From positions 1 to 40,326 of the IMG/VR virus record IMGVR_UViG_3300037422_000319: a DNA stretch of 40,326 nucleotides; one strand, written 5' to 3'. The translations under genes were made by a program, and so were the position numbers. Every line of letters starts with the position of its first letter. Position 1 is the first letter of the stretch. The notes under the pieces are model-generated. The model did not search any database. It saw only the letters and a list, made by a program, of their open reading frames with translations, and was not told where the DNA came from. Source of the stretch: a virus. This document shows, in pieces, positions 3,946 to 40,326 of this stretch.

Positions 3946-4237
3946 CACGCGACATGCCAGTCACGCTAATCTAAGAAGCCCCTGATATTATTAGTAATGC
4001 GCCTTTGCAATACGCCAAAGCTTACAACAATATGCGGGAACGGTTCTGACACCTAGTCAGCTGTCTACAAGCCTGCTATGCTTATCACGCCCTAGACACT
4101 ATAAACTGGCATAAACATTGCCCTTGGCACGCTTACTGCCGTGTATGACACGCAAAAACCATGCCAAACGCCCTAATGTATGACGGCACGCCGCTTGCAT
4201 GCTGTATGACAGGCCCTCCGAATACACCTTGACACGT
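3946..4237 (+). repeat. Iteron-like array: six same-strand CACGC (plus one CACGT), three preceded by TGTATGAC
   Basis: CACGC at 3946, 3962, 4086, 4128, 4149 and 4187. CACGT at 4233. TGTATGAC at 4142, 4177 and 4203. All lie in the 744-bp ORF-free region. Confidence 0.6.
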
Positions 4238-4423: not shown

Positions 4424-4479
4424 TTGACAAGAAAAACTGAACTGTGCTACACTCCTATTATATAGCAAACGTTAGCTAA
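4424..4479 (+). promoter_or_regulatory. Rightward promoter P1 (TTGACA-N18-TACACT with TGn extended -10) plus downstream conserved box AGCAAACGTTAGCTAA
   Basis: TTGACA at 4424-4429, TGC-TACACT at 4445-4453, box at 4464-4479. Same CTTGACAA / TGCTAC / box arrangement as at 38104-38149. Confidence 0.6.
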
Positions 4480-4556
4480 ACCACACTAAGAGATAAGCCT
4501 CCGATACTGAGTATTGATACTCTGCAGAAAGCATAGAACCCTCCTTTAAAAAAGTC

Positions 4557-4591
4557 TTGACACCGCCAACTGGAGTTGGCATACTATTTCA
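4557..4591 (+). promoter_or_regulatory. Rightward late-operon promoter (TTGACA-N17-CATACT) with palindromic operator GCCAACTGGAGTTGGCA in the spacer; -10 ends 6 nt before ATG 4592
   Basis: TTGACA at 4557-4562, palindrome at 4565-4581, CATACT at 4580-4585, ATG at 4592. No SD before the ATG. Confidence 0.6.
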
Positions 4592-4882
4592 ATGAAGCAA
4601 GTCTCCACAACCGAAATCGAGAAGCGGTCCAAAGATCTCGAAGAATCCTTTAATTCTAAAAAAGCTGAGCATGAGAGTATTAGAAAGCAAATTGAGCAGG
4701 CCAGCCAGCGTCAGCAGCAACTTTACCAGGAATTGGTAAGTATTCAGGGCGCTTGGAATGCTCTTAGGAGCCTTCTGCCAGAGAAGCCAGCCACTCCTGT
4801 TGATAAAGTACCAGCAAAGTTGAAGGCTGTTAAAGCTTCAAAGGACGCTATAAGTGCTCCTAAGACAGCTCAATCAGAATGA
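4592..4882 (+). CDS. Hypothetical coiled-coil protein (96 aa); sits where a small terminase subunit might be, but is not recognisable as one
   Basis: Track ORF, first gene of the late operon. Charged heptad-like sequence. Confidence 0.55.
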   Translation: MKQVSTTEIEKRSKDLEESFNSKKAEHESIRKQIEQASQRQQQLYQELVSIQGAWNALRSLLPEKPATPVDKVPAKLKAVKASKDAISAPKTAQSE

Positions 4883-5303: not shown

Positions 5304-6666
5304 TTTACTACCAGAACCAATCCGGCAGCGGCGAGAGCTTTTTTGCCTATTACAGGAAAAGAGGCGACGAACGCTCCCAGTAGATCTTTTTGAACGGCAG
5401 TCCCAGGTCAATAGCTCCCTTGACTCAGGTGTGTCCCGAATCGCGCTAGAAGTCGGGAGACGCGGGGGGAAGACCGACTTCCTCATATGGAAGTTAGGGG
5501 ACTTTGCTATAAACGCCCCCCGCGCAAATCTTGCGTATATCGCTAAAACCCTTGATTCTGCAAAGAGTATCGTTTGGTCCAAATTTCAGAAAATGTTCGA
5601 AGGGATTCCGGGAGTAGACTTTAAAGAAGGAACTCTAGAGATTCACTTCTCCAATCACTCAAAAATAAAGCTATACGGCGGCGATAAGGACCCGGATGTT
5701 ATTCGAGGAATGGCGCATCATGGCGTAGTTATTGACGAAGCTGCTCATATAAAGGGCCTTAAATATATTGTCGAAGAGATCGTAGAACCTACTCTTATTG
5801 ATTATGCTGGGTGGCTGGTACTGGCATCTACCCCCTACGGGTATGGCCCATTCTACGAATTTTGTCACTCGCCCCATTGGACATATTTCCACTGGACCGG
5901 CTATGATAATCCCTATATCCCACATCGAGAATTGGATAAGATGAAAGTTAAGTATGGCGAAAATAACGATGTGTGGTTACAGGAATATATGGCTATTCCA
6001 GTTCGCCACTCAGGCCTAGTTTTCTCCAATCTGCGCCCTTACCCACCACATGTTATTTCAGGCAAGGGTTTCGAGCCCAACCCTACTTGGCAGTACATCA
6101 TTGGGTTAGACCCCGGCACCGATGCCCCCACCGGCTTCGGCCTTTTCGCTTACGACCCCTTGAAAGATATCTTGTATTGCTTAAAGGCTAAGAATTTAGT
6201 AGATGCTTCTCTTAATACTATGGAAGCCTTGATTCGAGATGAATTGGTTAAGTATCCAAACTTAATAGCAATTGTAGACCATCACGCCTCTCTAGTCATT
6301 AAAGAACTCGGAAATAGAAAGCTTCCAATCGTGCCTTGTGGCACTAAAGACAGAATGGGCAGTTATAGTCGATTGATTGCTCGTATAGAGAGAGAACGTT
6401 TTGTTATTGTTAGAGAAACTAGTGAGGATCTGCTGACTGAGTGTATGCTTTTAGAATGGAAGCCAGCTCGAGGCGGGGAGAACGATACAAATGGTGTTAT
6501 CGGGAGCGATCATTGCGTAGATATGACTAGGTATGCAAATGAATATTTTTGGTATAAAGAAATTGTAGAAATCGAAGCGGATAAAACTAAGGAATTCATT
6601 GATCCTTTTGAGAAAAAGATCATGGAGGAAATGAATAAAGATAAGGATGACGATTCATGGATGTAA
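5296..6666 (+). CDS. terL: Terminase large subunit
   Basis: Walker A GRRGGKT, Walker B VVIDEAAH, C-terminal RNase H-like nuclease acidic motifs IIGLDPGTD and DHCVDMTRY. Followed by the portal. Confidence 0.9.
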   Translation: MTNLLPEPIRQRRELFCLLQEKRRRTLPVDLFERQSQVNSSLDSGVSRIALEVGRRGGKTDFLIWKLGDFAINAPRANLAYIAKTLDSAKSIVWSKFQKMFEGIPGVDFKEGTLEIHFSNHSKIKLYGGDKDPDVIRGMAHHGVVIDEAAHIKGLKYIVEEIVEPTLIDYAGWLVLASTPYGYGPFYEFCHSPHWTYFHWTGYDNPYIPHRELDKMKVKYGENNDVWLQEYMAIPVRHSGLVFSNLRPYPPHVISGKGFEPNPTWQYIIGLDPGTDAPTGFGLFAYDPLKDILYCLKAKNLVDASLNTMEALIRDELVKYPNLIAIVDHHASLVIKELGNRKLPIVPCGTKDRMGSYSRLIARIERERFVIVRETSEDLLTECMLLEWKPARGGENDTNGVIGSDHCVDMTRYANEYFWYKEIVEIEADKTKEFIDPFEKKIMEEMNKDKDDDSWM

Positions 6667-6878
6667 AAACTATTGCTGAATTAGGACAACTAGTGGATAT
6701 GCTAAGAGAAAAAGGCGTTTATCGTTATGTCTCCCCTGCTTTATCTATTGACATAGCCCCAAATATGTTGTATACTCCCCTCAAGTCCGAAAATCCCCCC
6801 AAAAAGGGCGCTAAAGCGTCCCCTAATAAACAAAAAGAAGCCGACGAGGCTTACGAGTACGGTGAGGAACAAGCTTAA
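6657..6878 (+). CDS. Hypothetical protein (73 aa)
   Basis: Track ORF; ATG overlaps the terminase end and its stop overlaps the portal ATG (TAATG). Confidence 0.55.
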   Translation: MDVKTIAELGQLVDMLREKGVYRYVSPALSIDIAPNMLYTPLKSENPPKKGAKASPNKQKEADEAYEYGEEQA

Positions 6879-14699: not shown

Positions 14700-16300
14700 T
14701 GGCTTTTTCAACTACAACAAATATGGGTTTACTCCTTCCTGTAGTCAGTAATGACTTTGGGGCTTGGGGGGGACATTTAAATCTTTCTCTGCAATCGATA
14801 GATTCGCATGATCACACTTCTGGAAAAGGCATAAAAGTTCCCTCAGCTGGCCTTAACATTAATGCCGATTTAAATTTTAATAACTTTAGTATTGACAATA
14901 TTGGAGAACTGCGTCAAACAAACTTTCTGGTCGCAGTAACTGGCAATAATAAGGTATATACTAGAAATGGTAACCTTTACTATAATGATGGTCTCGGGAA
15001 TCAGATTCAAATTACGGCTGGGGGAATCGTAAACTCTTCTGGAGCAGGCAGTATTACTGGCTTAGGCGGCGATGATACAGTAATTTTCAATGATATAGAC
15101 AATATTATCTCTTTCAATGCTGACGGCGTTGCCAATTCGATGATCGGGCGCTTTGGAGAACTTCAAGTAACGGATCGCTATACATATGGAATTGGAACTA
15201 CCATAAATACAGATTTTATCTCCTCAAAATTCAGATTTAACAATGGCTCCCCAGGCAATGGTAACCTACTCTTTGAAAAATGGTTTGTCGATTCGTCTAG
15301 CAATATAGATTTTACTTTCGCCACAAGCACATTTAATTTTAATACGGGCGTAGCCAACGGGGCCAATTTAAAAGCTACCGATATTATATCACTTAATAGT
15401 TTTATTATAGGCACTGCCACTCCGGCTACACTATCTCGTTCAGCGGCCAATACTCTTTTAATTGATGATAAATTGCAATTAACGGATGTAACAGGACCTT
15501 TACTATCCCAAGCAAGCGGAACTAGACTTTTAATAGAAAATTCAGTTCAATTAGAGTCTTCTGTAGATGGTCCTATTTTATCACGAGCCAATGCAAATAG
15601 ATTATTAGTAGCCAATTCACTGCAGATAGAAAATAATTCAGATGGTCCTATTTTATCAAGAAGTTCAGCCAATCGTTTAAATATTGGTACTTCTTTACAG
15701 ATTAACTCTGGTCCAATTATATCAAATACGGGCGGCGTAACGCATATTAGCGGGGATCTATTAGTTAGTTCAGCGTCTGTTGGGGGCTCGCTTCAAGTTG
15801 GAACAGGCGGAGTTAATTTAACTGATCAGGGTTCAAATAGGTTGATGTGGAGAGGGGTTTTCGAACTAGGAAATGCGGGAGGAGCCACAGGTCCTAGATT
15901 ATTTAGAGCAACGGGGAATGTAATTGCTAGTGACAATAGTTCCGGGGTATTTCAAGGAAACGTTGTTCTTACTACAAATACTATTGGCGGAGCAAACGGT
16001 TATAGTTTAATTGGCGGAACAGGGGATCAAGCATCCTCTACTGTTTTAACTGGGGAAGGTTTTACTATTTCATTTAGCGGAACAGCGGGAATAGCTACAG
16101 TAAATTTTTCTACACCTTTTGTATCACCGCCAGCTGTTACATTTACTGCTACGAATGCGTTAACAGGCGCAGCAGATCCAGGAATTATTATAGGAATTTC
16201 ATCTATAACAAACAGTTCTGTAACTTTTGTTAGACGGACTGATGCTGGAACAAGAACATCAGGTCAATTTAGTTTTATTGCGTATGGTAGATATGCTTAA
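14699..16300 (+). CDS. Tail fibre / receptor-binding protein 2 with internal 22-25-aa repeats
   Basis: N-terminal SIDSHDHTSGKGIKVP motif (compare DDHSQY in fibre 1). Repeats of the form GP(I/L)LS(R/Q)xxxxRLLxxNSxQ(L/I)E. Gly/Ser/Thr/Asn-rich. Confidence 0.65.
   Translation: MAFSTTTNMGLLLPVVSNDFGAWGGHLNLSLQSIDSHDHTSGKGIKVPSAGLNINADLNFNNFSIDNIGELRQTNFLVAVTGNNKVYTRNGNLYYNDGLGNQIQITAGGIVNSSGAGSITGLGGDDTVIFNDIDNIISFNADGVANSMIGRFGELQVTDRYTYGIGTTINTDFISSKFRFNNGSPGNGNLLFEKWFVDSSSNIDFTFATSTFNFNTGVANGANLKATDIISLNSFIIGTATPATLSRSAANTLLIDDKLQLTDVTGPLLSQASGTRLLIENSVQLESSVDGPILSRANANRLLVANSLQIENNSDGPILSRSSANRLNIGTSLQINSGPIISNTGGVTHISGDLLVSSASVGGSLQVGTGGVNLTDQGSNRLMWRGVFELGNAGGATGPRLFRATGNVIASDNSSGVFQGNVVLTTNTIGGANGYSLIGGTGDQASSTVLTGEGFTISFSGTAGIATVNFSTPFVSPPAVTFTATNALTGAADPGIIIGISSITNSSVTFVRRTDAGTRTSGQFSFIAYGRYA
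15425..15769 (+). repeat. About five in-frame tandem repeat units inside fibre gene 2
   Basis: ATLSRSAANTLLIDDKLQLTDVT / GPLLSQASGTRLLIENSVQLESSVD / GPILSRANANRLLVANSLQIENNSD / GPILSRSSANRLNIGTSLQINS / GPIISNTGGVTHISGDLLVSS. Confidence 0.8.
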
Positions 16301-16451: not shown

Positions 16452-19337
16452 ATGCGATTTGAGCCAGTACAATATACCTTCTCTAAAGGGCGGCATGCAA
16501 AAATTGATCCTTTTGGGTTACAACCGCCTTATTTTAAAGACATCGAAAATATGGTCACCCGTCGCCTAGGAGAATGGCGCGTTAGAACTGGTTATGAAAC
16601 AATCGATTCGCTGTCTTCTGGCCGAGCACTTTTTACCCTAGATACTGACCTTGTTGCGATTACCGATACTACCCTAGAGAGTTATACAACAACCGCAGAC
16701 AATTTTACTGAACAAGGGGCCTTTTATAATTTTTCAACGGCAAAACGAGCAATTTCAATTCGTTCTGCACAGCAATCTGACCCCGTAACTGCTGCGTATG
16801 ACGGCAAAATCCTTACAATGTGGGAAGATCTTACTGAATCCGGGGATCAAACCATTCGCTTTAAAATAATCGGAGCTGACGGAGAAACTGTTAAAGAGGA
16901 TACTATATTAGCAGGCTCTGTTGGAATAGATTATTCTGAACCTCGCTGCTTTGCCATGTCTAACCGATTTGCAATAACCTATAAGCGCGATTCTGATGAC
17001 CATACTTTTTTTACATCAATCCTATATTCAGATGACACATCTACTCCAGCATCAGGATTAGACATAGGCATTAAAAAGAATTTACAAGGCGAGTATACGG
17101 CCCTTACTAATCAAATCGCCATTACCTATATCGATGGAGCTAATAACCATCGAGGAGCTTTTCTTACTAATACAGGCTTTACGATGTCAGAAGTTACGGT
17201 TTCATTAGACGGTCCTAATATCGATCGTCTTTGGATTACCACTCGCGATATTGCATCAGTTCCTGAAAGCTTTATTTGCTACCATGAGACAGGAACTCCA
17301 GCGGTTAAATTTACCATTCGCAATTCGGCCATGGCTCAAGTTGTTGCCCCAACTGCGATTGAGGCAGCGGCTGATTTAGATCGTCCGATGGCCATTTACA
17401 ATGACACTGACTGGCGCGCCTATTGGGTCGATAAAGGAGGCGCATCTGAAAGTACCCTTTCTAAGATTAGGACTACGACCATCAGTACAACGGGAGCGGT
17501 CGGGCCCCTATCGGACTACTTGTTAAATAGGGTCATTACTAGCTCGCCGATCTTCATAGGCGACGAACTTTATTTACAAAGCTACCGATATGGCACGTTC
17601 CCTGGGTATGAACTTCTTACCGGAGAAGTTACACCAACCAAAATTAACGAAATGGAAACGGTAACCGTGCCGTCTTCTGCAAGTATCTTTAATAGACCGG
17701 CAGAAGATAATGGTACATTTTACTATGCCCAGCTTTCTACGTTATCAAGATTTAGAGATGCATCCTTCAACTTATTATCTAACGTAGTATCCTATGTTTT
17801 ATCTCAAGAATTAAAAGTTGTTGGGACAAAAGCCGTAAAAAGTTTATTTTTGACTGGACCCCAGGTTACCGTATATGATGGACAAGATGTATTTGAAGCC
17901 GGTTTTCCTATTCCTGATGCTATTGTTAGTGAAGTATCTGCAGGGTCTACTTTAACTGTACGATACGCTTATACATTTACATTTACAGACGCTAATGGTA
18001 TTGAGATTGAGTCATCGCCCTCCACAGATTTAGAAGTAACTACAAATGATCCTAGCGGTTCAAATGTTACAATAGAGGTACGAACTCTTAAGTTGACTAG
18101 AAAAGACCTAAATCGGGTTAAAATTAATCTTTACCGAACACTAAATTTGGGCACAACCTTTTTCTTAGTTAGTCAAAGTGTAAATGATCCTGCCGTAGAT
18201 ACGATTAGCATCGTAGATAACGTATCCGAAGTAACTTTAGCTACACGCCCTGTTTTATACACCGAAGGAGACGTTCTTGAAAACGATCCTATACCGGAGT
18301 CTACTTTTCTTAAGCAGCTTAATAATCGCATATTTTTTATACCTAGGGACAATACCTCTGCGGTAGGCTATACAAAGTTAAATCAATATCATGCATCTCC
18401 TGCAGGCTTTAGAGAAATCATTGATCAGAATGACGATGATGAGAATAAAGCGCTAGCTGAGTTAAATAGTAATTTAGTTATTTTTAAATCTGATACGATT
18501 CATATACTTACGGGCGCAGGTCCAGATAATAAAGGCCAAAACAATGACTTTTCCAGAAGAAAGGTTCCTACAGATGTCGGTTGCGTAGAGCCCCGCTCTA
18601 TCGCTCAATTACGAGAAATGGTCATATTCAAATCTCGTAGAGGTATATACTCAATAGACAGAGGCGAAAATGTTGTATATATCGGGGCTGAAGTAGAAGA
18701 TTACAATGACCGCGACATTACCTCAGCTGTGGTATACCCCGACTACCAGGAAGCCCGTTTTACGCTTTCTACAGGGGAAGTGCTGATCTACAACTACGAG
18801 ATGCAGGCTTGGAGTGTCTTTACCAAATATAGTGCAGCTGGGGCCGTTTTATGGCAATTTACGAATAAGTATTACCATATTAGATCAGACGGCGCAGTTC
18901 TTGGGGAATTAAAGTCTAACTCTATAACTGATTTTAATGACGAAGGCTCAGCAATTAAAATAAGACTTAGAACCCCCTGGCTTTGGTTCGAACACAAAAT
19001 GGTTAGAAAAAGGGCTAAACGCTGTGCAATATTAGGATCTTATAGCAATGGTTGTGAAATCCTTGTCGCTTTGCATACTGATTATGTTGACGGCATTAAG
19101 GATGTTGCAGTTGTTACCTTCGACGATTTAGTGGCTTATTCCGAGGGCAATTACGGAGAAGGCATTTATGGCGGCGGAACCAGCCTTGTAGAGTTACGAC
19201 GAAAGCTGAAATTACAGAAGGCGAAATCTTATAGTTTTGACATTAGCGCAGACCAACTAAATCAGGATTTTGTGTTTTCAGGCATGGAGTGGGAAGTCGG
19301 CATGAAGGTCGGCTTAAAGGATTCTAAAGCGGCATAG
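16452..19337 (+). CDS. Large tail structural protein (961 aa; nozzle / tubular-B-like by size and position)
   Basis: Largest ORF. Precedes three ejection-protein-like genes, as in T7-type gene order. No motif recognised. Confidence 0.5.
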   Translation: MRFEPVQYTFSKGRHAKIDPFGLQPPYFKDIENMVTRRLGEWRVRTGYETIDSLSSGRALFTLDTDLVAITDTTLESYTTTADNFTEQGAFYNFSTAKRAISIRSAQQSDPVTAAYDGKILTMWEDLTESGDQTIRFKIIGADGETVKEDTILAGSVGIDYSEPRCFAMSNRFAITYKRDSDDHTFFTSILYSDDTSTPASGLDIGIKKNLQGEYTALTNQIAITYIDGANNHRGAFLTNTGFTMSEVTVSLDGPNIDRLWITTRDIASVPESFICYHETGTPAVKFTIRNSAMAQVVAPTAIEAAADLDRPMAIYNDTDWRAYWVDKGGASESTLSKIRTTTISTTGAVGPLSDYLLNRVITSSPIFIGDELYLQSYRYGTFPGYELLTGEVTPTKINEMETVTVPSSASIFNRPAEDNGTFYYAQLSTLSRFRDASFNLLSNVVSYVLSQELKVVGTKAVKSLFLTGPQVTVYDGQDVFEAGFPIPDAIVSEVSAGSTLTVRYAYTFTFTDANGIEIESSPSTDLEVTTNDPSGSNVTIEVRTLKLTRKDLNRVKINLYRTLNLGTTFFLVSQSVNDPAVDTISIVDNVSEVTLATRPVLYTEGDVLENDPIPESTFLKQLNNRIFFIPRDNTSAVGYTKLNQYHASPAGFREIIDQNDDDENKALAELNSNLVIFKSDTIHILTGAGPDNKGQNNDFSRRKVPTDVGCVEPRSIAQLREMVIFKSRRGIYSIDRGENVVYIGAEVEDYNDRDITSAVVYPDYQEARFTLSTGEVLIYNYEMQAWSVFTKYSAAGAVLWQFTNKYYHIRSDGAVLGELKSNSITDFNDEGSAIKIRLRTPWLWFEHKMVRKRAKRCAILGSYSNGCEILVALHTDYVDGIKDVAVVTFDDLVAYSEGNYGEGIYGGGTSLVELRRKLKLQKAKSYSFDISADQLNQDFVFSGMEWEVGMKVGLKDSKAA

Positions 19338-19368: not shown

Positions 19369-19611
19369 ATGGCACTGCCTAGACCAAATTATCGCGATAT
19401 GGGTAAGAGCACGGGAAACCAGTTAAGTTCTACCCTAGACGAGAATTTTAAGCGCGTTGAAAAAGACATCTCTAGGCTGCAAGATCGCAATTTAGAAGCC
19501 TCCAATTCAGCGCCAGGTACAGTTTTAGGATCGGTTGTAAGAAAAATAGAAGTATTTGATAAAGACGGGAATTCATTGGGATTTCTCGCATTATATGATG
19601 AGATAACCTAG
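19369..19611 (+). CDS. Hypothetical protein (80 aa)
   Basis: Track ORF in the structural operon. Confidence 0.5.
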   Translation: MALPRPNYRDMGKSTGNQLSSTLDENFKRVEKDISRLQDRNLEASNSAPGTVLGSVVRKIEVFDKDGNSLGFLALYDEIT

Positions 19612-19621
19612 CTTCGCTAGG
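19607..19621 (+). other. Short hairpin CCTAGC-ttc-GCTAGG overlapping the stop codon of the 80-aa gene
   Basis: 6-bp stem read directly. No U-tract, so not a confident terminator. Confidence 0.4.
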
Positions 19622-19629
19622 GGTTAAAC

Positions 19630-19674
19630 TTGACTTATACCACGTTTGTGGTATAGTGCCAACTGGAGTTGGCA
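19630..19674 (+). promoter_or_regulatory. Internal late promoter (TTGACT-N16-TATAGT) carrying two palindromes: ATACCAC-gttt-GTGGTAT in the spacer and GCCAACTGGAGTTGGCA at +1
   Basis: TTGACT at 19630-19635, palindrome A at 19637-19654, TATAGT at 19652-19657. Palindrome B at 19658-19674 is identical to 4565-4581. Confidence 0.65.
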
Positions 19675-19693: not shown

Positions 19694-20959
19694 ATGGCAG
19701 ATTTTGGATCAGCGCTATCGGGAGCAGTTTCAGGAGCTTCTGCAGGTTCAGCGGCGGGACCTTGGGGAACTGCAATTGGGGGAGTAGGAGGCCTTTTAGC
19801 AGGTTTACTCGGAGGAGGAGGACCTAGACCAGGCGAATTAGCAGCTAAAGCTGGCGGCTCTAACTCACAAATTCTAGGAGAAGCCTTTAGAAGCCCTCAG
19901 AGTGCAGAGCAACAGCAGCAAGTGATCGCTCAGCGAGTTTTGGCTGCGTACCCTAAATTGGGTACTCTTGAAAATGCTCTTAAATGGTATGCAGTTAGAA
20001 AAAAACTTGCTAATGAAGGCGGTAAAATAAGCAAGAAAGATTTAGAAGTTATCGCAGTTGTAGACTCTGCTCTATCCGAGCAAGGCATAAATATTGATAT
20101 GAGTAACCCCGATCAGCTTAAAAGTATATTCGGGGAACAAGGCGCGGCCTTTTTATCAACGCCAGTTCAAGATCTTATTACCATGAATCAGCAAGCAGTT
20201 CAAACTGCTAGGGAAATCGCTGCCCAGGCACCACAAATTTTACAAGAATTCAAAGCTGAAGCGGGTATAGAGCTGACTCCAGAACAGCAATTAGCTAAGG
20301 AGCAGAGGAGAAATCTATTGGTTTCCTCGATACTAGAACCGGCGAGATCAGAACTTGCATCCGCAGGCGCGACTGCAGAACGATCAGCTGCAGCTCGTGG
20401 ATTGACCTCCAGCCCGCTTTTAGAGCGCGATATTCTCAGAGAACGCGGTAAAATTGGAGCTGAAGCAGGCCGAACGGCTGCTCTTAGTATGGAAGATGCT
20501 AGACAAAAGGCACTTGCGCAATTGCCTGATGTCATCTCTAAGTCTATTGCCGCAGGCCTAACCCCAGAACAATATGTAAATCAAGTTGAAGGAGCAAGAG
20601 TACAGGCAGGAATGGGACAAGCTCAATTAGCTCAAGCGGGATTCCAGGGAGCTTCACAATTAGCTTTAGGTGAACGAGAATTGGCTATGAAGCCAGAATT
20701 AGCCAGAATTGGACAAGAATCTCAGTATGCTAAATTAGCTCAGCAAAAAAAGGGAGCAGAGGCGGAAGCCTTGGCAGGTTTGGGAGCTTCTGTTGAAACG
20801 GCTTTGAGTGGCGGTAAAAAAGATACAAAAGGAATGGCGACCGATGCTGAGGCTAATAAGTTTTTTGATTCAGCTGCAGAAGAGTATGATATTGACCAAG
20901 CCTCTAAAAATATAACCGCTGGCGTTATTAGACAGCCTAGAAATACGAAGGTACGATAA
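19694..20959 (+). CDS. Internal virion / ejection-like protein A (421 aa)
   Basis: Gly-rich hydrophobic N-terminus (GSALSGAVSGASAGSAAGPWGTAIGGVGGLLAGLLGGGG), then an Ala/Gln/Glu-rich helical body. Position after the tail protein. Confidence 0.5.
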   Translation: MADFGSALSGAVSGASAGSAAGPWGTAIGGVGGLLAGLLGGGGPRPGELAAKAGGSNSQILGEAFRSPQSAEQQQQVIAQRVLAAYPKLGTLENALKWYAVRKKLANEGGKISKKDLEVIAVVDSALSEQGINIDMSNPDQLKSIFGEQGAAFLSTPVQDLITMNQQAVQTAREIAAQAPQILQEFKAEAGIELTPEQQLAKEQRRNLLVSSILEPARSELASAGATAERSAAARGLTSSPLLERDILRERGKIGAEAGRTAALSMEDARQKALAQLPDVISKSIAAGLTPEQYVNQVEGARVQAGMGQAQLAQAGFQGASQLALGERELAMKPELARIGQESQYAKLAQQKKGAEAEALAGLGASVETALSGGKKDTKGMATDAEANKFFDSAAEEYDIDQASKNITAGVIRQPRNTKVR

Positions 20960-22731
20960 TGGCACCGCAAAATCCCCTTCTCCAATCGATGCTTAATCGC
21001 CAACTAGGTAATTTAGCAAATCCTGATCAACAACCCCCGATGTCTAACGATCCAGAAGAAGCTGAAGCATTACAGTTAGAATCGATGTACCCTCAAACTA
21101 GAACCCCAGGCCCAGTAAGGCCGGGGCAACAGCAAGGATTTATTGACCCTAAAACAGGACAAGAACGGCCCCCGTGGGCAGGTACCCCCTTTGCCCCTCC
21201 CCCTGGTCAATCAATGCCTCAAGAGGACGTTCAGCGCTTTAATCAGTTATACTCGACCGCAGAACAGATTGGGCAGCCGATACAATCCGCCCCTCAGGAA
21301 AAAGCCCCAGATCTAGCCCGTAAAGCTGCAGAAGGCCTAATGGCAGATGAAATGGAAGTTCAGAAGGCTAAATTGGCTGCAGAGCAAAAACTTGAAAAAG
21401 GAACAGTCAATACCGACCCTATGGACTTATCGCAGTACTATAGGAGTTCAGCTCAGGCGCTGTCTAAAATAACCGATACCCCAAGAGCCAGCGCAGCGAT
21501 GAAAGAGTTATCAAAATTAGTAAGTCAAAAAGCTGAGCTGTCGGAGCAGTATTTAGCAAAAATTAACCCTGCCGAATTTGGTCGTCCAGACTATTCCGCA
21601 GACCTTAATAAAAAGGGACTAGAAGATTTTATTAAAGAAAATAGAACGCTAAGAGAAAAGCAGAAAGTTGAATTGGACAATATAACGGATCAGATTAAAG
21701 AAAAAAAGCTAGACCCAGCCAACTTTTGGGCTAATAAGGGGGCTTTTAATCAACTTTTGGCGGGCATCTCTATCGCTTTAGGCGGATATGGCAGGGCCTT
21801 GTCTGGGGGTTCTAGCAATATTGCAATGCAAATTATAGACAAGGCCGCTGACCGGGACTGGGAAGCTCAAAAGAGTGAATTAGATAAGCTTTACAAGCTG
21901 CATGGCCTAACCTCCGAATCCATTAAACAGTTAAACGACCAAGAAGCCCATGATTTATCGGTTCTAAACTCCTCTGAACTTTTAGGTCTTGAGCATAGGC
22001 AGGCTAAATTCGCAGCTCTAGAAGGTCAACTAAAACTGGTAACAGAGCAGATTAAAAATGAAGAACAAAAAGCTGGCTATGACAATCTAATAGCGGACAT
22101 TCAGAATAAGCGAGCCGACATTGCCAATAAGATAAATACGATGGAAGATAGGCAAGTAGGCCGCATGCTAGAGCTTGGTAAGGAACTGGCTAAACAACAG
22201 GCAGCCGGTAAAGGAAAAGCCCCCACAACAGGCATGGCGCAGCATGTATCTGATGCTAGGTCTACTCTTTCTGCACTTGAGGATCTTCGTAAGATCCCTA
22301 AAGAAAAATTAAATCAATTGCTTCAGTTTTCAATAGCAGAAAAGATTGATCTTTTCGGGGATGTCAGATCTTATTTTGATTCTGCAGAGAAGGCAGGCCT
22401 TAGAGCAGAATTGCAGACTTTGGCTAATGTTTATAGACATGCCATAACCGGATCTCAGGCTGGTTGGAAAGAAATTGAATTCTTGAAAAACAGTCTTCCA
22501 AATCTTGGCGATAGAAATTCGGAAGTATTTTTGTCCAAATTAGACGCGGCCCATAAAAGATTCAGAACAGATCATAATCTTTATTTAGACACTCTTGCTA
22601 AGACAGGATACAACGTAAGTCAATTGTCTCCTGCAGAAGCCCCTCTAGATACAAATGATCCAAGAGTTCAGAAAGCCTTAGAAGCTGGCTACAGCGAACA
22701 AGAAATAAGGGAGTTCATGCGTGGCAAATAG
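20959..22731 (+). CDS. Internal virion / ejection-like protein B (590 aa)
   Basis: Pro/Gln-rich N-terminus and a long coiled-coil body. TAATG coupling to the previous gene. Confidence 0.5.
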   Translation: MAPQNPLLQSMLNRQLGNLANPDQQPPMSNDPEEAEALQLESMYPQTRTPGPVRPGQQQGFIDPKTGQERPPWAGTPFAPPPGQSMPQEDVQRFNQLYSTAEQIGQPIQSAPQEKAPDLARKAAEGLMADEMEVQKAKLAAEQKLEKGTVNTDPMDLSQYYRSSAQALSKITDTPRASAAMKELSKLVSQKAELSEQYLAKINPAEFGRPDYSADLNKKGLEDFIKENRTLREKQKVELDNITDQIKEKKLDPANFWANKGAFNQLLAGISIALGGYGRALSGGSSNIAMQIIDKAADRDWEAQKSELDKLYKLHGLTSESIKQLNDQEAHDLSVLNSSELLGLEHRQAKFAALEGQLKLVTEQIKNEEQKAGYDNLIADIQNKRADIANKINTMEDRQVGRMLELGKELAKQQAAGKGKAPTTGMAQHVSDARSTLSALEDLRKIPKEKLNQLLQFSIAEKIDLFGDVRSYFDSAEKAGLRAELQTLANVYRHAITGSQAGWKEIEFLKNSLPNLGDRNSEVFLSKLDAAHKRFRTDHNLYLDTLAKTGYNVSQLSPAEAPLDTNDPRVQKALEAGYSEQEIREFMRGK

Positions 22732-24709
22732 ACCTTCCCTAGAATCAATTTTTGGTGGAACTGAGAACGGTTTGGTACGGCCACAGGAACGGCCTTCTCT
22801 TGAAGAACTCTTCTCTGATCCCGCAGAGGAAACTCGCGACGATGAAGGCGGAGCAGTAGAACGTTTGGCATCCGGTTTGGGTGTTGAGCCTTCCCAGGAA
22901 GCCACGTATAGGGCCCCAAATCAAGAAAATCCACTTGCGTCCTTTGCAGCCGGAACTACTACCGGCGCGGTAGGGGATATTGCGGCTGAAGCCCTAAATC
23001 CCCAAGCTTATGAAGCTCGAACCCCCGTCGGGGGGGCTTTAAGCCAAAGAGTTTTTGATAATAAATTATACTATACCGGCTATCTAGCTGGACAAGCAGC
23101 ACAATTTTATGCCCTGCGTGGCGCTCTGAAATGGTTTGATGTGGGGGCTCCTCTTGCGACTGAGGTAGTGAAGAACGGCCTGATAATCGGCGCTTCTAGC
23201 TTTGCAAATAATGCCGATGTGCCTGATGCGTGGCAAAATGCAGCTTTAGGGTCGCTGTTATCCTTCGGCGGTGAGATGGCCGTAAAGCATTTTTCTAAGG
23301 CCCCAAAGTCCGGCTTAACGAGTAATGCCGTAACCGAAGCTGCAGCGGTAGAGGCTGAGCAATTTCCCAAAACTCTTGGTCAATACTTAGATGGCTTAGA
23401 AGTTGGAAAAGTTACTAAGACGGGCCCTGCGATGAACATTGCGTCGCTGGCCATTGACAACGTACTTGGACGAATTCCTTTCATAAGTGAACTGACAGGA
23501 AAACCATCGCTGCGAGAAAACATGAAGCGACTCATGAGCATCGTTCGAGGGGAATCTTCCGATGCCGAGGTTGACTATCTTACTAAAAGTGCAGGAGAAC
23601 TCTTTGAAGGAGCCTCCGATTCGATGAGTAAGAGAGCCCTTGATTTTAAGAAATCCCCTGAAGCCTATCGTGCTAGAGGGCTTATGGAGGGGGCTTCTCA
23701 AGATGCTCGAAAGGCAATGCTTAAGGCTAAGGATAAGATAATTAAACAGAAGCGGGCTCTTACAGAAACTGGGGGAGAACTTACACGTCCAGGAGAGTTT
23801 ATCTCTGATTTGAAGTTAGATAAAAAAACAGCTAACCTAGAAAAAATGAGAATTAAGCTGTTGGCTGAACAGACTGAGGGTGAAATCGATAAAATGGTTA
23901 ATCGCGCCTTTCAGATTGAAAAGAATTTCATGCCTAAGGCCCAGGAATTGCTAAAGGGCTACCAGGCATTTAGCGAAGTATCGGGCAAGCAAATTGATAT
24001 GGCCTACCCCCTTAGAGTGTTGGATACCTGGGTGACTAGTAGGATGGATGACGTTGCCCGTAACCTTCCAGAAATAAAGATTGACCCAGAATTGACCGGA
24101 ATTCAGGCTGCTAAAGAAGTAGCCTCTAAACAGAAAGAGATTTTAAAGGCCTATGGCAAAGTCATGGGTGAGTTCGAAAGGCTTCCTCTTGTACAGGAGA
24201 TCATGTCAATTGGCCAGAGAGATTTGTCCGATGAGAAGATCATGCTTAATCTTTTGAGAGGGGCCGAGGCCTTATCAAAAGAGAGTGGATTCCAAAAAAC
24301 TCATGCCGAGTCGCTGGTAAGTCTATTAACGGCCTACCGCCGTTCTGCCGGGGATCGCAAAGCAATGGCGGCTGCGGCTAAGGCTGAGTTAGGCGCTATT
24401 GATGCCATTAAAGCTAAAAATCCAGAAAAAGCCATAGACATTGTGGAAAAGTTCTTTAAGATTAGAGAAAACATGAATGGCTTCCTAAAATCCGAGGCGG
24501 CTAAGGCAATAAAAGGCCCTTCAGAAAAGCCCCTGCCTGGCTCTGAGCCTCTTAAAACGGATGCTGTTACCTCGGCCTACCAAGCAGCGGACTTTAATCG
24601 CTCGCGCAGGGAAGGCCAGACTAATGCTGCAGGAGCGGGCAGAGCAGCTAAAAGTTCTAGTTTCAGAACGCCCAGCGATCAATTCAGAGATCAAAAGGGT
24701 CGATATTAA
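22721..24709 (+). CDS. Internal virion / ejection-like protein C (662 aa)
   Basis: GTG start with GGGAG 7 nt upstream. Large helical protein, third of the series. Confidence 0.5.
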   Translation: MANRPSLESIFGGTENGLVRPQERPSLEELFSDPAEETRDDEGGAVERLASGLGVEPSQEATYRAPNQENPLASFAAGTTTGAVGDIAAEALNPQAYEARTPVGGALSQRVFDNKLYYTGYLAGQAAQFYALRGALKWFDVGAPLATEVVKNGLIIGASSFANNADVPDAWQNAALGSLLSFGGEMAVKHFSKAPKSGLTSNAVTEAAAVEAEQFPKTLGQYLDGLEVGKVTKTGPAMNIASLAIDNVLGRIPFISELTGKPSLRENMKRLMSIVRGESSDAEVDYLTKSAGELFEGASDSMSKRALDFKKSPEAYRARGLMEGASQDARKAMLKAKDKIIKQKRALTETGGELTRPGEFISDLKLDKKTANLEKMRIKLLAEQTEGEIDKMVNRAFQIEKNFMPKAQELLKGYQAFSEVSGKQIDMAYPLRVLDTWVTSRMDDVARNLPEIKIDPELTGIQAAKEVASKQKEILKAYGKVMGEFERLPLVQEIMSIGQRDLSDEKIMLNLLRGAEALSKESGFQKTHAESLVSLLTAYRRSAGDRKAMAAAAKAELGAIDAIKAKNPEKAIDIVEKFFKIRENMNGFLKSEAAKAIKGPSEKPLPGSEPLKTDAVTSAYQAADFNRSRREGQTNAAGAGRAAKSSSFRTPSDQFRDQKGRY

Positions 24710-24731
24710 GCTAGCCCCTCGAGGGAACGAG

Positions 24732-24920
24732 ATGAAAGAGTATAAGGAAATGTCTAAGATTTGGCAGGACGAGGAAGACGAGGAAATGCTTAAAAACATT
24801 AAGTCCCCTACCCCAGTCCACTTTAAAGGCAAAACCTATTATCTCCTGCCTGAATCAGTCTGTATTCGCAGTATTAGAGGCTCCTCTGATTCGGAATTTT
24901 CGATCGTGGTTTTTAATTAA
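24732..24920 (+). CDS. Hypothetical protein (62 aa from MKEYKEMSK)
   Basis: Track ORF 24561..24920 trimmed. ATG 24732 follows the upstream stop (24709) and a GAGGGAA SD. Confidence 0.5.
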   Translation: MKEYKEMSKIWQDEEDEEMLKNIKSPTPVHFKGKTYYLLPESVCIRSIRGSSDSEFSIVVFN

Positions 24921-25267
24921 TGGCGGACGATAAAGACATATTGCAGGTGCTGGGGGAGATAACTGCGACTCAAAAGCTTCAACAGGAGGCCCTTAGGGAC
25001 ATTTCTGATACCTGTAGAGCCAATACCGAGACTTTAATAAAGAATACAGAACAATTAGAATACCACATTCGCCGCACCGACATCATAGAAGAAAAGCACG
25101 AAGGATTCATGATTCTAACCGATAAACGTCTGGATTTATTGGAGAATGACCGGAAAGCGCGGGTCGCCATCAAGAAGGCCCTCTGGAAAACACTAGGAAA
25201 AGCTTCCTTCTTAGCAGGGGCCATTGTAGCGATTATAGAGGCTATTAGGGCCTTAATGAGGCTGTAA
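24920..25267 (+). CDS. Tail-anchored membrane protein (coiled-coil N-terminus, C-terminal TM); possible lysis regulator or holin partner
   Basis: C-terminal KASFLAGAIVAIIEAIRALMRL hydrophobic segment. Adjacent to the holin-like gene at the end of the late operon. Confidence 0.4.
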   Translation: MADDKDILQVLGEITATQKLQQEALRDISDTCRANTETLIKNTEQLEYHIRRTDIIEEKHEGFMILTDKRLDLLENDRKARVAIKKALWKTLGKASFLAGAIVAIIEAIRALMRL

Positions 25268-25269
25268 TA

Positions 25270-25506
25270 ATGAAAAGCATATACCCCATTGACCCTAAGA
25301 CCAAGAAGCGATCTGTGACCCTCCTATTAGTTATGGTAGCTAGTTTAGCAGTGCTTTCAAATATCGCCTTAGCGGCTCTAGGCTATGTTAAGGAGGAGTT
25401 GCCTATGGTTAGGGAATTCTTCTTCGGGGCCTTAGGGGCGTATACAGCAAGAAAGTTTACATTCTCTAAGGATTCCGTTGACATAGAGGAAAGTTCTAAG
25501 GAGTAA
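25270..25506 (+). CDS. Holin-like protein (78 aa, two hydrophobic segments, charged C-terminus)
   Basis: VTLLLVMVASLAVLSNIALAALGYV and FFFGALGAYTA segments, with an acidic/lysine tail. Near the end of the late operon, followed only by the small 25648-25821 ORF. Confidence 0.5.
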   Translation: MKSIYPIDPKTKKRSVTLLLVMVASLAVLSNIALAALGYVKEELPMVREFFFGALGAYTARKFTFSKDSVDIEESSKE

Positions 25507-25647: not shown

Positions 25648-25821
25648 ATGGCTGAAGATAGAAAAATAGATCCTCAGAAAAGTAAGGAAGCCGGCGAGGC
25701 TCTTAAAAATGCTGGAATGGAACAACTACAGAAAATTAAAGAGTTTTTCACTGGAAGGCAGCAGGTAGATCAAAAACGTGCTCAAGCTGCAGAAAATCTT
25801 AAGAAGAATCGCGGCTACTAG
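25648..25821 (+). CDS. Small hydrophilic protein (57 aa), not in the ORF track
   Basis: AAGGAGA lies 7 nt upstream of ATG 25648. Translation: MAEDRKIDPQKSKEAGEALKNAGMEQLQKIKEFFTGRQQVDQKRAQAAENLKKNRGY. Confidence 0.55.
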   Translation: MAEDRKIDPQKSKEAGEALKNAGMEQLQKIKEFFTGRQQVDQKRAQAAENLKKNRGY

Positions 25822-25955
25822 CTTTGCTAGGACTCTTTTACGCATTCCTTGTAAACTTGGGCTGTATCGAATAAAGATGCGGATAGAAGTAATTGCTTTT
25901 AAGCCAAATACTTTAGAAGAAATCGGGAGAGTGACGCGGCGTTGTATAAGGTGCT

Positions 25956-30771: not shown

Positions 30772-31326
30772 TTAAGCTGCGCGGTCAAATTCTGGCGGCG
30801 CAATAAAAAGTTCGAAAATACTTCTCACTTCTGAAGCTATATCAAGTCTGGAACGAAGTAGCGATACAAAACTTGCAACTGCCCCGTCATCCTGCCCCTC
30901 TACCTCTAAGAAGAGCCTCCGATCAGAATCACCCTCTACTTTATAAAAGGCACATTCCAATTTAAAGCCTTCATAGTTAAGCTTATACAACATATAAGTC
31001 TTACTAATTTCTCCGAGAGGGTCCCCAAGAACAGACCTAAAAAATCCCTTAGGGTATTCCACATCTGTTATAAACTCATGCTCGAGACGGTCAATATTGT
31101 TGCCCTTATCCTTTGTCTTTACTGTAACTAAGGTTTCTCTTTGCCCCTCTGTACGCCTAACTCTAAGAAATTGGGCCTCTCCATAAGATCGAAAATAAGT
31201 ATCCGTATCCATGTATAAAGACGTGTCTGTAGTAATAACATCAATAGATGGGATACCCTCAATCGCTACCCTAAGATTCTCTAGAGCTGAAAATAAGCTA
31301 TCCTGGCCTCTAACTACAAACTTCAT
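30772..31326 (-). CDS. CYTH-like (triphosphate tunnel metalloenzyme / class IV adenylate cyclase fold) protein, divergent
   Basis: FLRVRRTEGQRETLVTVKTKDKGNNIDRLEHEFITDV and RRLFLEVEG resemble CYTH strands (lRiR...lT.K....R.E.E and fvEiE). The N-terminal ExExK is replaced by KFVVR. Confidence 0.4.
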   Translation of the reverse strand: MKFVVRGQDSLFSALENLRVAIEGIPSIDVITTDTSLYMDTDTYFRSYGEAQFLRVRRTEGQRETLVTVKTKDKGNNIDRLEHEFITDVEYPKGFFRSVLGDPLGEISKTYMLYKLNYEGFKLECAFYKVEGDSDRRLFLEVEGQDDGAVASFVSLLRSRLDIASEVRSIFELFIAPPEFDRAA

Positions 31327-31766
31327 TTGTTCCTCCCAGATACTCCATTAGGATCAATAGCCCCAATTGGTATTAGAAAAGCCTGCGGTGCTTCTCCAGG
31401 ATCTGCTATATCCTGTGTGGAGGCTTTTTCTAATTCTCGTAACTTTAATTCTAACTGAGCTAAAACATTCCAGGCTTCGTGGGCTTGGTGAAGAAGGCCT
31501 GACTGCGGGTCATACTCTTCTCCTCGGTGACGGCTATTTTGATGGCGTCCTTGAGCATCAGCGTAACGAGATTGGCCATTTGGGACTTGGAGCCAGCCGC
31601 TATCGCTATACTTAATCGAGCCCATGGTGCCAACTTTAACGACTTCTTGAAAGGCCCTAGCAAAATCTTTAAGTACCAAGTTGAAGCGTAGTTTGCCTGC
31701 ATCTAACTTAGCCCCTGGGGTGTGGGCATCATAGCCTAGGGGGTCTTTTTCAGAATTTCTTTCCAT
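31323..31766 (-). CDS. DUF5664 / dATP-dGTP diphosphohydrolase N-terminal-domain-like protein
   Basis: KLDAGKLRFNLV...VVKVGTMGSIKY...RYADAQGRH...EYDPQSGLLHQAHEAWNVLAQLEL matches the K.D.GK...Ga.KY...A..RH...D.eSG..H.a...N.l pattern. Start trimmed to ATG 31766 (GAGGA upstream). Confidence 0.65.
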   Translation of the reverse strand: MERNSEKDPLGYDAHTPGAKLDAGKLRFNLVLKDFARAFQEVVKVGTMGSIKYSDSGWLQVPNGQSRYADAQGRHQNSRHRGEEYDPQSGLLHQAHEAWNVLAQLELKLRELEKASTQDIADPGEAPQAFLIPIGAIDPNGVSGRNK

Positions 31767-32079
31767 GGCGAATTCCTCGTGTTTTATTGTATTCAAGTTT
31801 TTTATCTATAATAGTTTCCAAGTCTAATTTTTTATACGCCGAGTAATCAAGTAAACGGATAACGGCATCTGCTATTTCAGAGCTTAGGCCTTTCAATTTT
31901 CCTGTAACAGGGTCTGCCCAAGTCTCTTCTTCGCCTTTACGAAGGCACTCAACCGCTTCAGCTAACTCAGTTACAACAAGCATGAGAGCCTCTGTATCAG
32001 TTTTCTTGAAACCTTCTTCGTACCAACCGGCCTCAACTGCTAGTTTATGGCATTTATCTTGTAATTCGTTTAATCTCAT
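31750..32079 (-). CDS. MazG-like nucleoside triphosphate pyrophosphohydrolase
   Basis: ALMLVVTELAEAVECLRKG ... LSSEIADAVIRLLDYSAYKKLDLETIIDKKLEYNKTR shows the all-alpha NTP-PPase E-x2-E ... E-x2-D signature. Confidence 0.75.
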   Translation of the reverse strand: MRLNELQDKCHKLAVEAGWYEEGFKKTDTEALMLVVTELAEAVECLRKGEEETWADPVTGKLKGLSSEIADAVIRLLDYSAYKKLDLETIIDKKLEYNKTRGIRHGKKF

Positions 32080-38104: not shown

Positions 38105-38149
38105 TTGACAAAAAATAAATCCTATGCTACTTTAGCATACGTTAGCTAA
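38105..38149 (+). promoter_or_regulatory. Rightward promoter P2 (TTGACA-N17-TACTTT with TGn extended -10) plus conserved box AGCATACGTTAGCTAA
   Basis: TTGACA at 38105-38110, TGC-TACTTT at 38125-38133, box at 38134-38149. Same design as 4424-4479. Confidence 0.6.
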
Positions 38150-38175
38150 GTATCTGAGGCTTTCTCTTATATAGC

Positions 38176-38211: not shown

Positions 38212-38682
38212 ATGACAAAAAAGCCTCCTTCAACTATTAATCAGGCAACTTTAAAAAAGGTTCGAAAGTTTTATGTAGTAGAGGGTTTGACTCCAACGGC
38301 AATCACGGCTCAAATGCGCATGGAGTTGCAACGTGTTGTCGATATCATCGAGCAGCACAATCTTAGGGCTGAGCGGGAGCTTTATTTAGAGCAGAACCCC
38401 AATCTATCGGCGCTAGCCGCTTCCTCTTCCGAACTCCGTAGGATTCAAAATAAACAGCAATCCAGTCAAGAGATTACGGCTTCTGAGAGAAACTTCCTAA
38501 TGAAATATTTAGAGGCTGAAGGAGCGGGCTTGACTGACCAGGAGCAGTTCCAAAACTGGTCAAAGGAGAAATTAGATAAACGAATTGGCGAATTGCACTC
38601 TAAACTGTATCCTGCTCAAAGCTCGAAAACTGCTCCCAAATCATCTTCGAAAACTGAAACTGATCAATCGGGGAAATCTTAA
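38212..38682 (+). CDS. HTH-like putative regulator (157 aa); the only rightward gene between the two leftward operons
   Basis: N-terminal ATLKKVRKFYVVEGLTPTAITAQMRMELQRVVDIIEQ looks like a helix-turn-helix. C-terminus is low-complexity and Ser/Lys-rich. The track TTG start at 38176 is rejected (no SD; it lies inside the promoter). Confidence 0.55.
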   Translation: MTKKPPSTINQATLKKVRKFYVVEGLTPTAITAQMRMELQRVVDIIEQHNLRAERELYLEQNPNLSALAASSSELRRIQNKQQSSQEITASERNFLMKYLEAEGAGLTDQEQFQNWSKEKLDKRIGELHSKLYPAQSSKTAPKSSSKTETDQSGKS

Positions 38683-38865: not shown

Positions 38866-39369
38866 TCACTCCCCAATCTCATCTGCCAAGCCAAGTTTAA
38901 CTGTTTCTTCTGCAGTTAAATACCAATCTTTATTCAGTTTAGCTCTTAGTTGTTTAAACGTAAAGCTAGGGATCTTTTTTCTAATTTGCTCTAAGTATAT
39001 CATATCAAGGCGGCCCTCTTCTTTAGCTGCATACCTAAGTTGCGATATTTGCTTTACTATTCCGTTATCGTCAACGGCTCCAATACTTCCGTGTAACATT
39101 ATCTTAGCATTCGGCATCACAATTCGTCTGTCAAATGCCTGAAGAATCAAAGAAGCCATAGACTGAGCTTCGCCGTATACAACTCCAGTAGTCCGTCCCT
39201 TCTGAGTTTTTATCGCATCATAGATAGCCATTCCTGCAGCAACCTCGCCTCCTTGTGAGTTTATGACTACATAGATGGGCTTCGATTTAGGCAATTCATA
39301 AAGTCGCCTAATAAATACTCGAGCTAAGCGATCATCTATATCACGGTCAAGATATAATATGTTTCTCAT
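38866..39369 (-). CDS. ClpP-like (S14 family) serine protease
   Basis: IYVVINSQGGEVAAGMAIYDAI...VYGEAQSMASLILQA...PNAKIMLHGS...KDWYLTAEETVKLGLADEI aligns with ClpP INSPGG / G.AaSM / imiHqP / rD.y...EA..yGliD, including Ser-His-Asp. Confidence 0.85.
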   Translation of the reverse strand: MRNILYLDRDIDDRLARVFIRRLYELPKSKPIYVVINSQGGEVAAGMAIYDAIKTQKGRTTGVVYGEAQSMASLILQAFDRRIVMPNAKIMLHGSIGAVDDNGIVKQISQLRYAAKEEGRLDMIYLEQIRKKIPSFTFKQLRAKLNKDWYLTAEETVKLGLADEIGE

Positions 39370-39733
39370 AGAACTCCCTTAGTATATCTTGTTTAAGAGG
39401 CACGTTATCCCTAAATTCTTTTTCAATTCCGTATTTTATGGCTAGCAATAATCCATATAAGTCTGCTTTTTCCTCAATATATTCAGCATAAAATGGAAGA
39501 GATTCGTAGCCTAGCGGGTCAATTATCTCAATTTCATTGTCTATATAATGCCCTAGCTCATGAAGCAAAACTAAGCATTTGTTTTTATAACTTAAAAGAG
39601 AACTAATTAAAATTTCCCGAAAAGGCTTAAAAACTCCTGCCATTCCATGCCAGTGTAAGAAGGCGTTTTCACATATACATATCTTTAGGCTCCAACTTAA
39701 TCGCAATTTCCAATATAAAAAAATCCATCTCAT
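39347..39733 (-). CDS. ImmA/IrrE-like zinc metalloprotease (HEXXH)
   Basis: LVLLHELGHYIDNE ... EEKADLYGLLLAIKYGI (HExxH plus a downstream E-x-x-A-D/N helix), as in the ImmA/IrrE family. Confidence 0.6.
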   Translation of the reverse strand: MRWIFLYWKLRLSWSLKICICENAFLHWHGMAGVFKPFREILISSLLSYKNKCLVLLHELGHYIDNEIEIIDPLGYESLPFYAEYIEEKADLYGLLLAIKYGIEKEFRDNVPLKQDILREFYEKHIIS

Positions 39734-40155: not shown

Positions 40156-40190
40156 CGTGATACTCCTTTCGAGGCGTAGCTCCGATTGAG

Positions 40191-40326
40191 CTATTTGGCA
40201 TAGTACTCTCTAACCATTTTCAAAAGCATCTTGACGGCAACAGACCAGACAGCAGCCCGGGCAGCAGACCAGGCAGCAGACTCGGCAGCAAACTCGGCAG
40301 AAGACTCGGCAGCAGCCCGGGCAGCA
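40191..40326 (-). CDS. 3-prime end of the Ala-repeat protein gene (duplicate of the 1-127 copy plus the last 3 codons including the stop)
   Basis: Frame carried from 1..465 across the circular junction gives ...REYYAK-TAG, with the stop at 40191-40193. Confidence 0.7.
   Translation of the reverse strand, partial: AARAAAESSAEFAAESAAWSAARAAVWSVAVKMLLKMVREYYAK
40200..40326. repeat. Second copy of the 127-nt terminal repeat
   Basis: Identical to 1-127. Confidence 0.95.

Follow-up and report, generated by a model that had tools for sequence, protein, structure and literature searches.

An 18-bp palindrome repeated at two structural-gene promoters of an uncultured SU10-like phage is a candidate operator

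The phage genome analysed here carries the same 18-bp palindrome at two promoters that point into its structural genes, and this repeat is probably the operator of a dimeric helix-turn-helix protein that would hold both promoters off together. As far as sequence comparison can tell, it has the signature of an operator: the half-sites are conserved and spaced by about one turn of the helix, the centre is free, and the repeat overlaps the promoter core. A dimer bound at both promoter cores would exclude RNA polymerase. The packaging, head and tail block, whose first gene begins at 4592, would be transcribed from one of these promoters and the distal structural block, beginning at 19694, from the other, so that the bound protein would keep both blocks off and allow their joint release. 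From this arrangement we infer both that a protein binds the palindrome and that it represses, along with what this protein is and how late genes are timed.

The window, by which we mean the whole stretch of 40,326 nucleotides that was analysed, is a complete circular phage genome of 40.2 kb, since bases 1–127 equal 40200–40326, with a G+C content of 42.7%. Virion genes lie on the plus strand from 4592 to about 25506 and include those for the large terminase, the portal, an SU10-family capsid protein and a 961-aa internal-virion-like protein. The early and replication genes on the minus strand encode a DNA polymerase A, a DUF669/SSB-like protein, a ClpP-like protein and an M78-like metalloprotease, together with a MazZ-like pyrophosphatase, DUF932 and GP88 proteins and a pilin-like protein. 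The capsid and adaptor proteins fall in the SU10 families PF17236 and PF24175, and many ORFs, including most of the early ones, have no family assignment. A scan of approximately 70 ORFs turned up neither an RNA polymerase nor a sigma factor, and no integrase or Pfam helix-turn-helix protein; this agrees with a first-pass annotation, which spoke of late expression without a phage RNA polymerase or a recognisable late sigma factor. There is no close relative among cultured phages, where the best capsid matches are about 22% identical. Searching IMG/VR with a 421-aa structural-block protein and the large terminase returned no close relatives either, and the capsid relatives in that collection, with an identity of only about 30%, do not carry the motif.

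The 17-mer GCCAACTGGAGTTGGCA occurs exactly twice, at 4565–4581 and 19658–19674, as the first-pass annotation had reported, and both copies are intergenic. That annotation had noticed no further copy, and a genome search allowing up to three mismatches adds none (0.04 expected by chance). When up to five mismatches are allowed in an 18-bp frame, the whole genome yields 11 matches, both copies included, against 10.9 in shuffled sequence; at this level the genome thus holds no additional weak sites. In the frame TGCCAACT-NN-AGTTGGCA, the copy at 19657–19674 is a perfect palindrome and the copy at 4564–4581 agrees at 17 of 18 positions, with a single C in place of T. Arms of 8 bp flank a 2-bp centre, which places the half-sites about 10 bp apart from centre to centre, or roughly one turn of the helix. 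The positions of both copies and of the neighbouring features are collected in Table 1.

Table 1. Positions of the palindromes, promoters, genes and bacterial loci discussed in the text
Feature	Position	Strand	Description
Operator copy 1	4564–4581	.	cGCCAACT-GG-AGTTGGCA; in the P4557 spacer, overlapping the -10
Operator copy 2	19657–19674	.	TGCCAACT-GG-AGTTGGCA; from the last base of the -10 across the expected start site
Predicted promoter P4557	4557–4585	+	TTGACA 4557–4562, 17-nt spacer, CATACT 4580–4585, TG at -15/-14
Predicted promoter P19630	19630–19657	+	TTGACT 19630–19635, 16-nt spacer, TATAGT 19652–19657, preceded by TG
First gene of the structural block	4592–4882	+	96 aa, coiled-coil-like; 56% identical in L033
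First gene after site 2	19694–20959	+	421 aa, no family match; 68% identical in L033
Second, unrelated palindrome	19636–19655	.	20 bp, TATACCAC-GTTT-GTGGTATA; occupies the P19630 spacer and supplies its -10; not in L033
Earlier candidate regulator	38212–38682	+	helix-turn-helix-like stretch; not a supported part of the system
Bacterial toxin-antitoxin loci with the palindrome			12 loci: L040, L063, L064, L068, L071, L076, L087, L101, L110, L112, L113, L115

Both sites carry predicted sigma70-like promoters that match the consensus at 10 of 12 positions, have a TG extension and point to structural genes. The first-pass annotation had proposed promoters of this type and orientation at 4557 and 19630; the prediction agrees, and the -35, the spacing and the CATACT of P4557 are identical in the related phage contig L033, where the sequence immediately 3' differs. 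The placement of the palindromes is also as first described. At site 1 the palindrome fills the space between -35 and -10 and extends into the -10, and at site 2 it runs from the final base of the -10 across the position expected for +1. ATG 4592 sits only 6 nt past the -10 of P4557 and has no Shine-Dalgarno sequence, so the mRNA from this promoter is probably leaderless. The distal structural block (19694–25506) begins with the 421-aa gene, whose ATG is preceded by GAAGG. The second palindrome at P19630, a perfect one, has no other copy in the genome except for one GTGGTATA half-site in coding sequence at 18729.

Another pair of promoters shares features of its own. P4424 (TTGACA-18-TACACT, 4424–4480) and P38105 (TTGACA-18-TACTTT, 38105–38150), both on the plus strand, have TGCTAC in common at the -10 and share the downstream box ACGTTAGCTAA (4469 and 38139); the two appear to form a second class of promoters. 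P4424 is located 130 nt ahead of the operator promoter, and its transcripts would be expected to carry a long leader with the conserved block TCTGCAGAAAGYATAGAACCC.

Two related contigs, L033 and L034, were found through the capsid protein, which is 86% and 54% identical to that of the window, respectively; L159, a contig of the early region, comes from the sample that yielded L033. L033 keeps the palindrome at both orthologous positions. Its site 1 ortholog (1250–1267) reads tACCAACT-TT-AGTTGGCA, within the layout TTGACAct-ACCAACT-TT-AGTTGGCA-TACT, with an ATG 7 nt past CATACT and no Shine-Dalgarno sequence. The site 2 ortholog (16160–16177) reads TGCCAACT-TA-AGTTGGCA, within the layout TTGACAg-TGCCAACT-TA-AGTTGGCA-GTATTAG. 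Across both sites, the window and L033 agree at 31 of 32 arm bases and at none of the four centre bases, and the intergenic flanks of the operators are much less conserved. Arms that are kept while the centre is free and the flanks have diverged indicate purifying selection on the half-sites. In three of the four sites the register is the same, namely TTGACA-N(1–2)-palindrome with the -10 overlapping the right arm. Site 2 of the window departs from it because the 20-bp palindrome is inserted between the -35 and the operator and gives a new -10. In the 21-kb stretch of L034 no such element is present, and the gap corresponding to site 2 is 12 nt long there.

The comparison also touches on the start codons. 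An ATG 6–7 nt past a good -10, with no Shine-Dalgarno sequence, occurs both at 4592 (CATACT) and at 38212 (TTGCGG-18-TATAAT), and this short distance is conserved: window 4580–4594 corresponds to L033 1266–1281, and 38195–38214 to L159 at about 5540–5565. The arrangement suggests leaderless mRNAs at both genes and may be a hint to the host group.

Since the palindrome can also fold as RNA, the four sites can be read as hairpins, GCCAAC-UGGA-GUUGGC, that might stabilise the 5' end, mark a processing site, weakly terminate or attenuate P4424 transcripts, or control translation close to the start codons. We regard such an RNA-level element as improbable. Three of the four sites have folding energies of -8.8 to -10.4 kcal/mol (z about -2.4), a terminator scan flagged site 1, and variation is confined to the loop. 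However, site 1 lies upstream of the predicted start and so would not be transcribed from P4557, and its L033 counterpart folds with just -5 kcal/mol (z -0.86). A U-tract is missing at site 2 and in L033, and site 1 alone has a tail, a weak one; the hairpins do not qualify as intrinsic terminators. Moreover, the stem shows no compensatory change and its arms are conserved as sequence, the same sequence is found on DNA at the -35 of the bacterial toxin-antitoxin promoters described below, and neither the window nor the related loci gave an Rfam match.

The spacing of the hexamers raises a further alternative, an activator site at which, for example, a MerR-like regulator would remodel an over-long spacer of 19–20 bp. 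Long-spacer readings exist at site 1 (TTGACA-19-TACTAT) and at site 2 of L033 (TTGACA-20-TATTAG), and the centre of the dyad falls midway between the hexamers. Yet the conserved reading is the 17-nt CATACT with TG, and TACTAT is TACTCA in L033. At site 2 of the window the palindrome lies 3' of a complete promoter with a 16-nt spacer, and a MerR-family gene was not found in the phage. We consider an activator of this type unlikely. Readings of the sites as a sigma54 promoter or a LexA box were set aside after comparison by eye with the consensus sequences.

An operator for a dimeric repressor, as the first-pass annotation had proposed, accounts better for the dyad, its overlap with the promoters and its conservation in L033; the protein that it named as the first candidate binder is not supported. 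The palindrome was also traced elsewhere. In viral contigs, the exact 17-mer has four matches, three of them in coding-like sequence and only one, in L002, in a regulatory position; a 16-base pattern has eight matches, all except L002 inside long ORFs. Three further matches to a promoter-plus-operator pattern in metagenome contigs looked like chance and were discarded. L002 is an unrelated, AT-rich phage contig (32.6% G+C) with two tandem copies upstream of a ParB-like gene, where they come after a terminator-like hairpin. Within the 8 kb of L002 no protein in common with the window is detectable. The hairpin of L002, which lies 15 nt before the palindromes, is a 29-bp element, GAACYTGTAAG-NAAT-CCTTACARGTTCGA (6771–6802), that recurs with 90% identity in L034 (4194–4226).

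In bacteria, the palindrome leads to a toxin-antitoxin clade. The pattern TGCCAACTNNAGTTGGCA was scanned in one genome per bacterial or archaeal species and gave 114 matches, against about 139 expected from size alone by a rough estimate; the total is thus uninformative, and it is the contexts that inform. Among the 80 loci listed out of the 114, 12 have the palindrome 30–100 nt ahead of an operon of two genes, a Gp49-family toxin gene (PF05973, TIGR02683) followed by one for an HI1420-type antitoxin (PF21716, TIGR02684, weak HTH_3). They come from several phyla, with Gammaproteobacteria, Latescibacterota, a cyanobacterium, Burkholderiaceae and a Desulfofustis assembly among the sources. In these promoters the left arm supplies TTGCCA as the -35, a -10 of TATATT or TATGAT follows 17 nt downstream, and the centre is AT, GT, AC or GC. 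We thus predict that TGCCAACT-NN-AGTTGGCA, lying over the -35, is the operator of this horizontally spread Gp49/HI1420 clade, for which no published operator was found in the literature. In a related Gp49-domain HigBA module of Acinetobacter baumannii, the antitoxin represses its own operon and the toxin acts as corepressor (PMC5906591). More distant HI1420 homologs in temperate phages of Burkholderia, Pasteurella and Brucella have different palindromes, so the match is to one clade and not to the whole family.

The phage sites share with this predicted operator the 8+2+8 sequence itself, exact at site 2 and at 17 of 18 positions at site 1, the free centre dinucleotide and the overlap with the promoter core. 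Unlike the bacterial loci, the phage has no toxin or antitoxin gene, and its sites do not lie upstream of such an operon. Whereas the toxin-antitoxin palindrome overlaps the -35, that of the phage occupies the spacer and -10 at one site and follows the -10 at the other; the phage promoters have a separate upstream TTGACA or TTGACT and no good -10 17 nt after the left arm.

Other bacterial occurrences are of a different kind. A Saccharibacteria assembly holds three promoter-like elements of about 55 nt, GGCTCGYT-TGCCAACTAAAGTTGGCA-16 nt-TAATAA (L038 571–588, L099 3879–3896 and L104 7331–7348), in which the right arm provides TTGGCA as the -35, 16 nt before TAATAA. Those in L038 and L099 point into cell-envelope genes, sugar-epimerase-like and RodA/FtsW-like, and the one in L104 faces away from the adjoining membrane-protein gene; the elements may form a small regulon or be a mobile promoter. 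As a possible host, this assembly has its three palindrome promoters in its favour, but no proteins in common with the phage. The palindrome is also found in Saprospiraceae repeats, in REP-like elements of Cloacimonadota beside a transposase, and beside XRE genes in two further loci. Such repeated promoter- or REP-like elements would fit a non-functional relic, that is a promoter/operator cassette taken from a toxin-antitoxin module or a mobile promoter. This explanation is the most remote of those considered, as the arms are kept at two sites in two phages while the flanks have diverged and the centre is free.

If the palindrome is an operator, its binder may come from outside the phage. That the phage sites carry the promoter palindrome of the toxin-antitoxin clade points to a factor supplied in trans, and identity over the 8-bp half-site is, on the sequence, unlikely to have arisen by chance. 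We tentatively propose that the binder is an HI1420/XRE-type protein provided by the host or by a resident prophage or plasmid, whose presence or decay the phage would read. The six-frame translations of the window, L002, L033 and L034 were searched with an antitoxin HMM and, by phmmer, with XRE, Cro and C2 sequences, and gave nothing (best E about 0.5–2.4). No XRE, MerR or HI1420-like ORF was found in the phage; homologs of the toxin or the antitoxin are likewise missing from the window, L033, L034, L159 and L002. The exact half-site identity, the lack of a recognisable cognate in the phage and the sharing with L002 together make a trans-acting factor about as likely as a phage protein. A counterpoint is that only one HI1420 clade matches, and its specificity is possibly coincidental; it would also be unusual for an accessory host factor to control essential late genes.

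Taken one step further, the promoters of both structural blocks and one promoter of L002 could be wired to the antitoxin, or the toxin-antitoxin complex, of a horizontally mobile Gp49/HI1420 module residing in the host or in one of its prophages or plasmids, an idea that we put forward with reserve. In one version, the labile antitoxin would decay after infection and so act as a timer that frees the late genes. In another, the module would defend the cell by directly repressing the late promoters of the phage.

Equally tentative is the possibility that an operator of the same kind is bound by a phage-encoded protein that no profile recognises, either the 38212–38682 product or a small early protein. 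Self-encoded control is common in phages, which usually bring their own control proteins, and most early ORFs here are without a family. The specificity of such a protein would match that of the toxin-antitoxin clade by chance, and an exact 8-bp half-site match to a conserved operator clade is unlikely on that basis. The empty antitoxin and XRE searches, and L002 with its operator and no detectable shared protein, also count against a binder made by the phage.

The first-pass annotation had put forward the 38212–38682 product as the first candidate, a choice that the analysis does not support. The product has no Pfam, PHROG or NCBIfam family, and its AlphaFold2 model is unusable (pLDDT 55.8). 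Homologs are present in L159 (73% identity) and L034 (36%). The helix-turn-helix-like stretch is conserved in L159, which comes from the sample of the operator-bearing L033, and differs in L034; this pattern would suit a binder, but a homolog also exists in L034, whose 21-kb stretch is operator-free. In addition, the gene has its own promoter with a different palindrome, TATGCTA-CTT-TAGCATA (38123–38139), which lies over the -10 of P38105, is kept in L159 at about 5455–5475 with the centre CTTA, and would be a more natural target for the product. It may be an autoregulatory site of the 38212–38682 gene. The M78-like metalloprotease, an ImmA/IrrE-like protein encoded at 39347–39733 on the minus strand (HELGH motif, PHROG 87, E 2e-8), has no adjoining XRE repressor gene; it was set aside as a remover of the repressor, being missing between ClpP and the next ORF in L159.

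Dyads that overlap phage promoters are well known from the operators of lambdoid Cro/CI and of P22 Arc/Mnt. The sites described here resemble them in the 17–18-bp dyad, in half-sites one turn apart, in the position over -35, -10 or +1, and in the use of one protein for several promoters. In contrast to those systems, there is no recognisable repressor gene near the sites or elsewhere in the genome, and the genes under these promoters are structural ones, in a phage that appears to be lytic, as no integrase was found.

Host control of phage promoters has precedents in LexA, boxes for which occur in GIL01, in CTXphi and at tum of coliphage 186. To our knowledge, the palindrome resembles no LexA box. 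If the binder acts in trans, the likeness would lie in an operator on phage DNA, a protein from the host and a development tied to the state of the host, whereas the candidate host factor here would be the antitoxin of an accessory toxin-antitoxin module and not a core regulator.

The phage has capsid and adaptor proteins of the SU10 families, and among the SU10/phiEco32-like podoviruses late transcription in phiEco32 uses a phage sigma factor, gp36. By comparison, no sigma factor or RNA polymerase was detected here, and the operator accompanies promoters whose -35 and -10 are of the host type.

Palindromic operators are a familiar type of element at phage promoters, and what is new here is the uncharacterised lineage. 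The unusual part would be the possible, still doubtful wiring to a toxin-antitoxin antitoxin. The sites offer a testable control point for structural genes in an uncultured SU10-like lineage in which no RNA polymerase or sigma factor was detected, and about 21 kb of virion genes would come under one 18-bp site, present at both promoters. As a by-product, the analysis yields a predicted operator for the widespread, uncharacterised Gp49/HI1420 clade. Were the binder an antitoxin, there would be a direct transcriptional link from a toxin-antitoxin system to phage late genes, which, if true, would bear on how such systems sense or resist infection. Were it an ordinary phage repressor, the finding would be routine.

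Several further features of the genome deserve mention. Iteron-like repeats, TTGGCACGCTTACTGCCGTGTATGAC and GGCACGCCGCTTGCATGCTGTATGAC, lie at 4100–4215 in a 666-bp divergent control region and are kept in L033 (780–880); they may be an origin or control sites of early promoters. A hairpin, CCTAGC-TTC-GCTAGG (19607–19621), stands at the end of the 19369–19611 ORF, and a similar one, CTAGC-TTT-GCTAG (25818–25830), lies beyond the structural block. Both are probably terminators, since a T-run trails the latter. Across the assembly junction (1–139 and 40188–40326) runs a 12-nt tandem periodicity (GGCAGCAGACYC-like), which encodes an Ala/Asp/Ser-rich or Leu/Pro-rich repetitive stretch, depending on the strand. 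The ORF at 31323–31796 has a MazZ-like dATP/dGTP diphosphohydrolase N-terminal domain (PF18909, E 1e-24). Among the ORFs scanned there was no Pfam match to an adenylosuccinate-synthetase-like protein (PurZ), and hence no evidence for a 2-aminoadenine genome. Finally, the 146-aa product of the minus-strand ORF at 562–1002 bears a prepilin-type N-terminal methylation motif (PF07963), and L159 contains a similar ORF.
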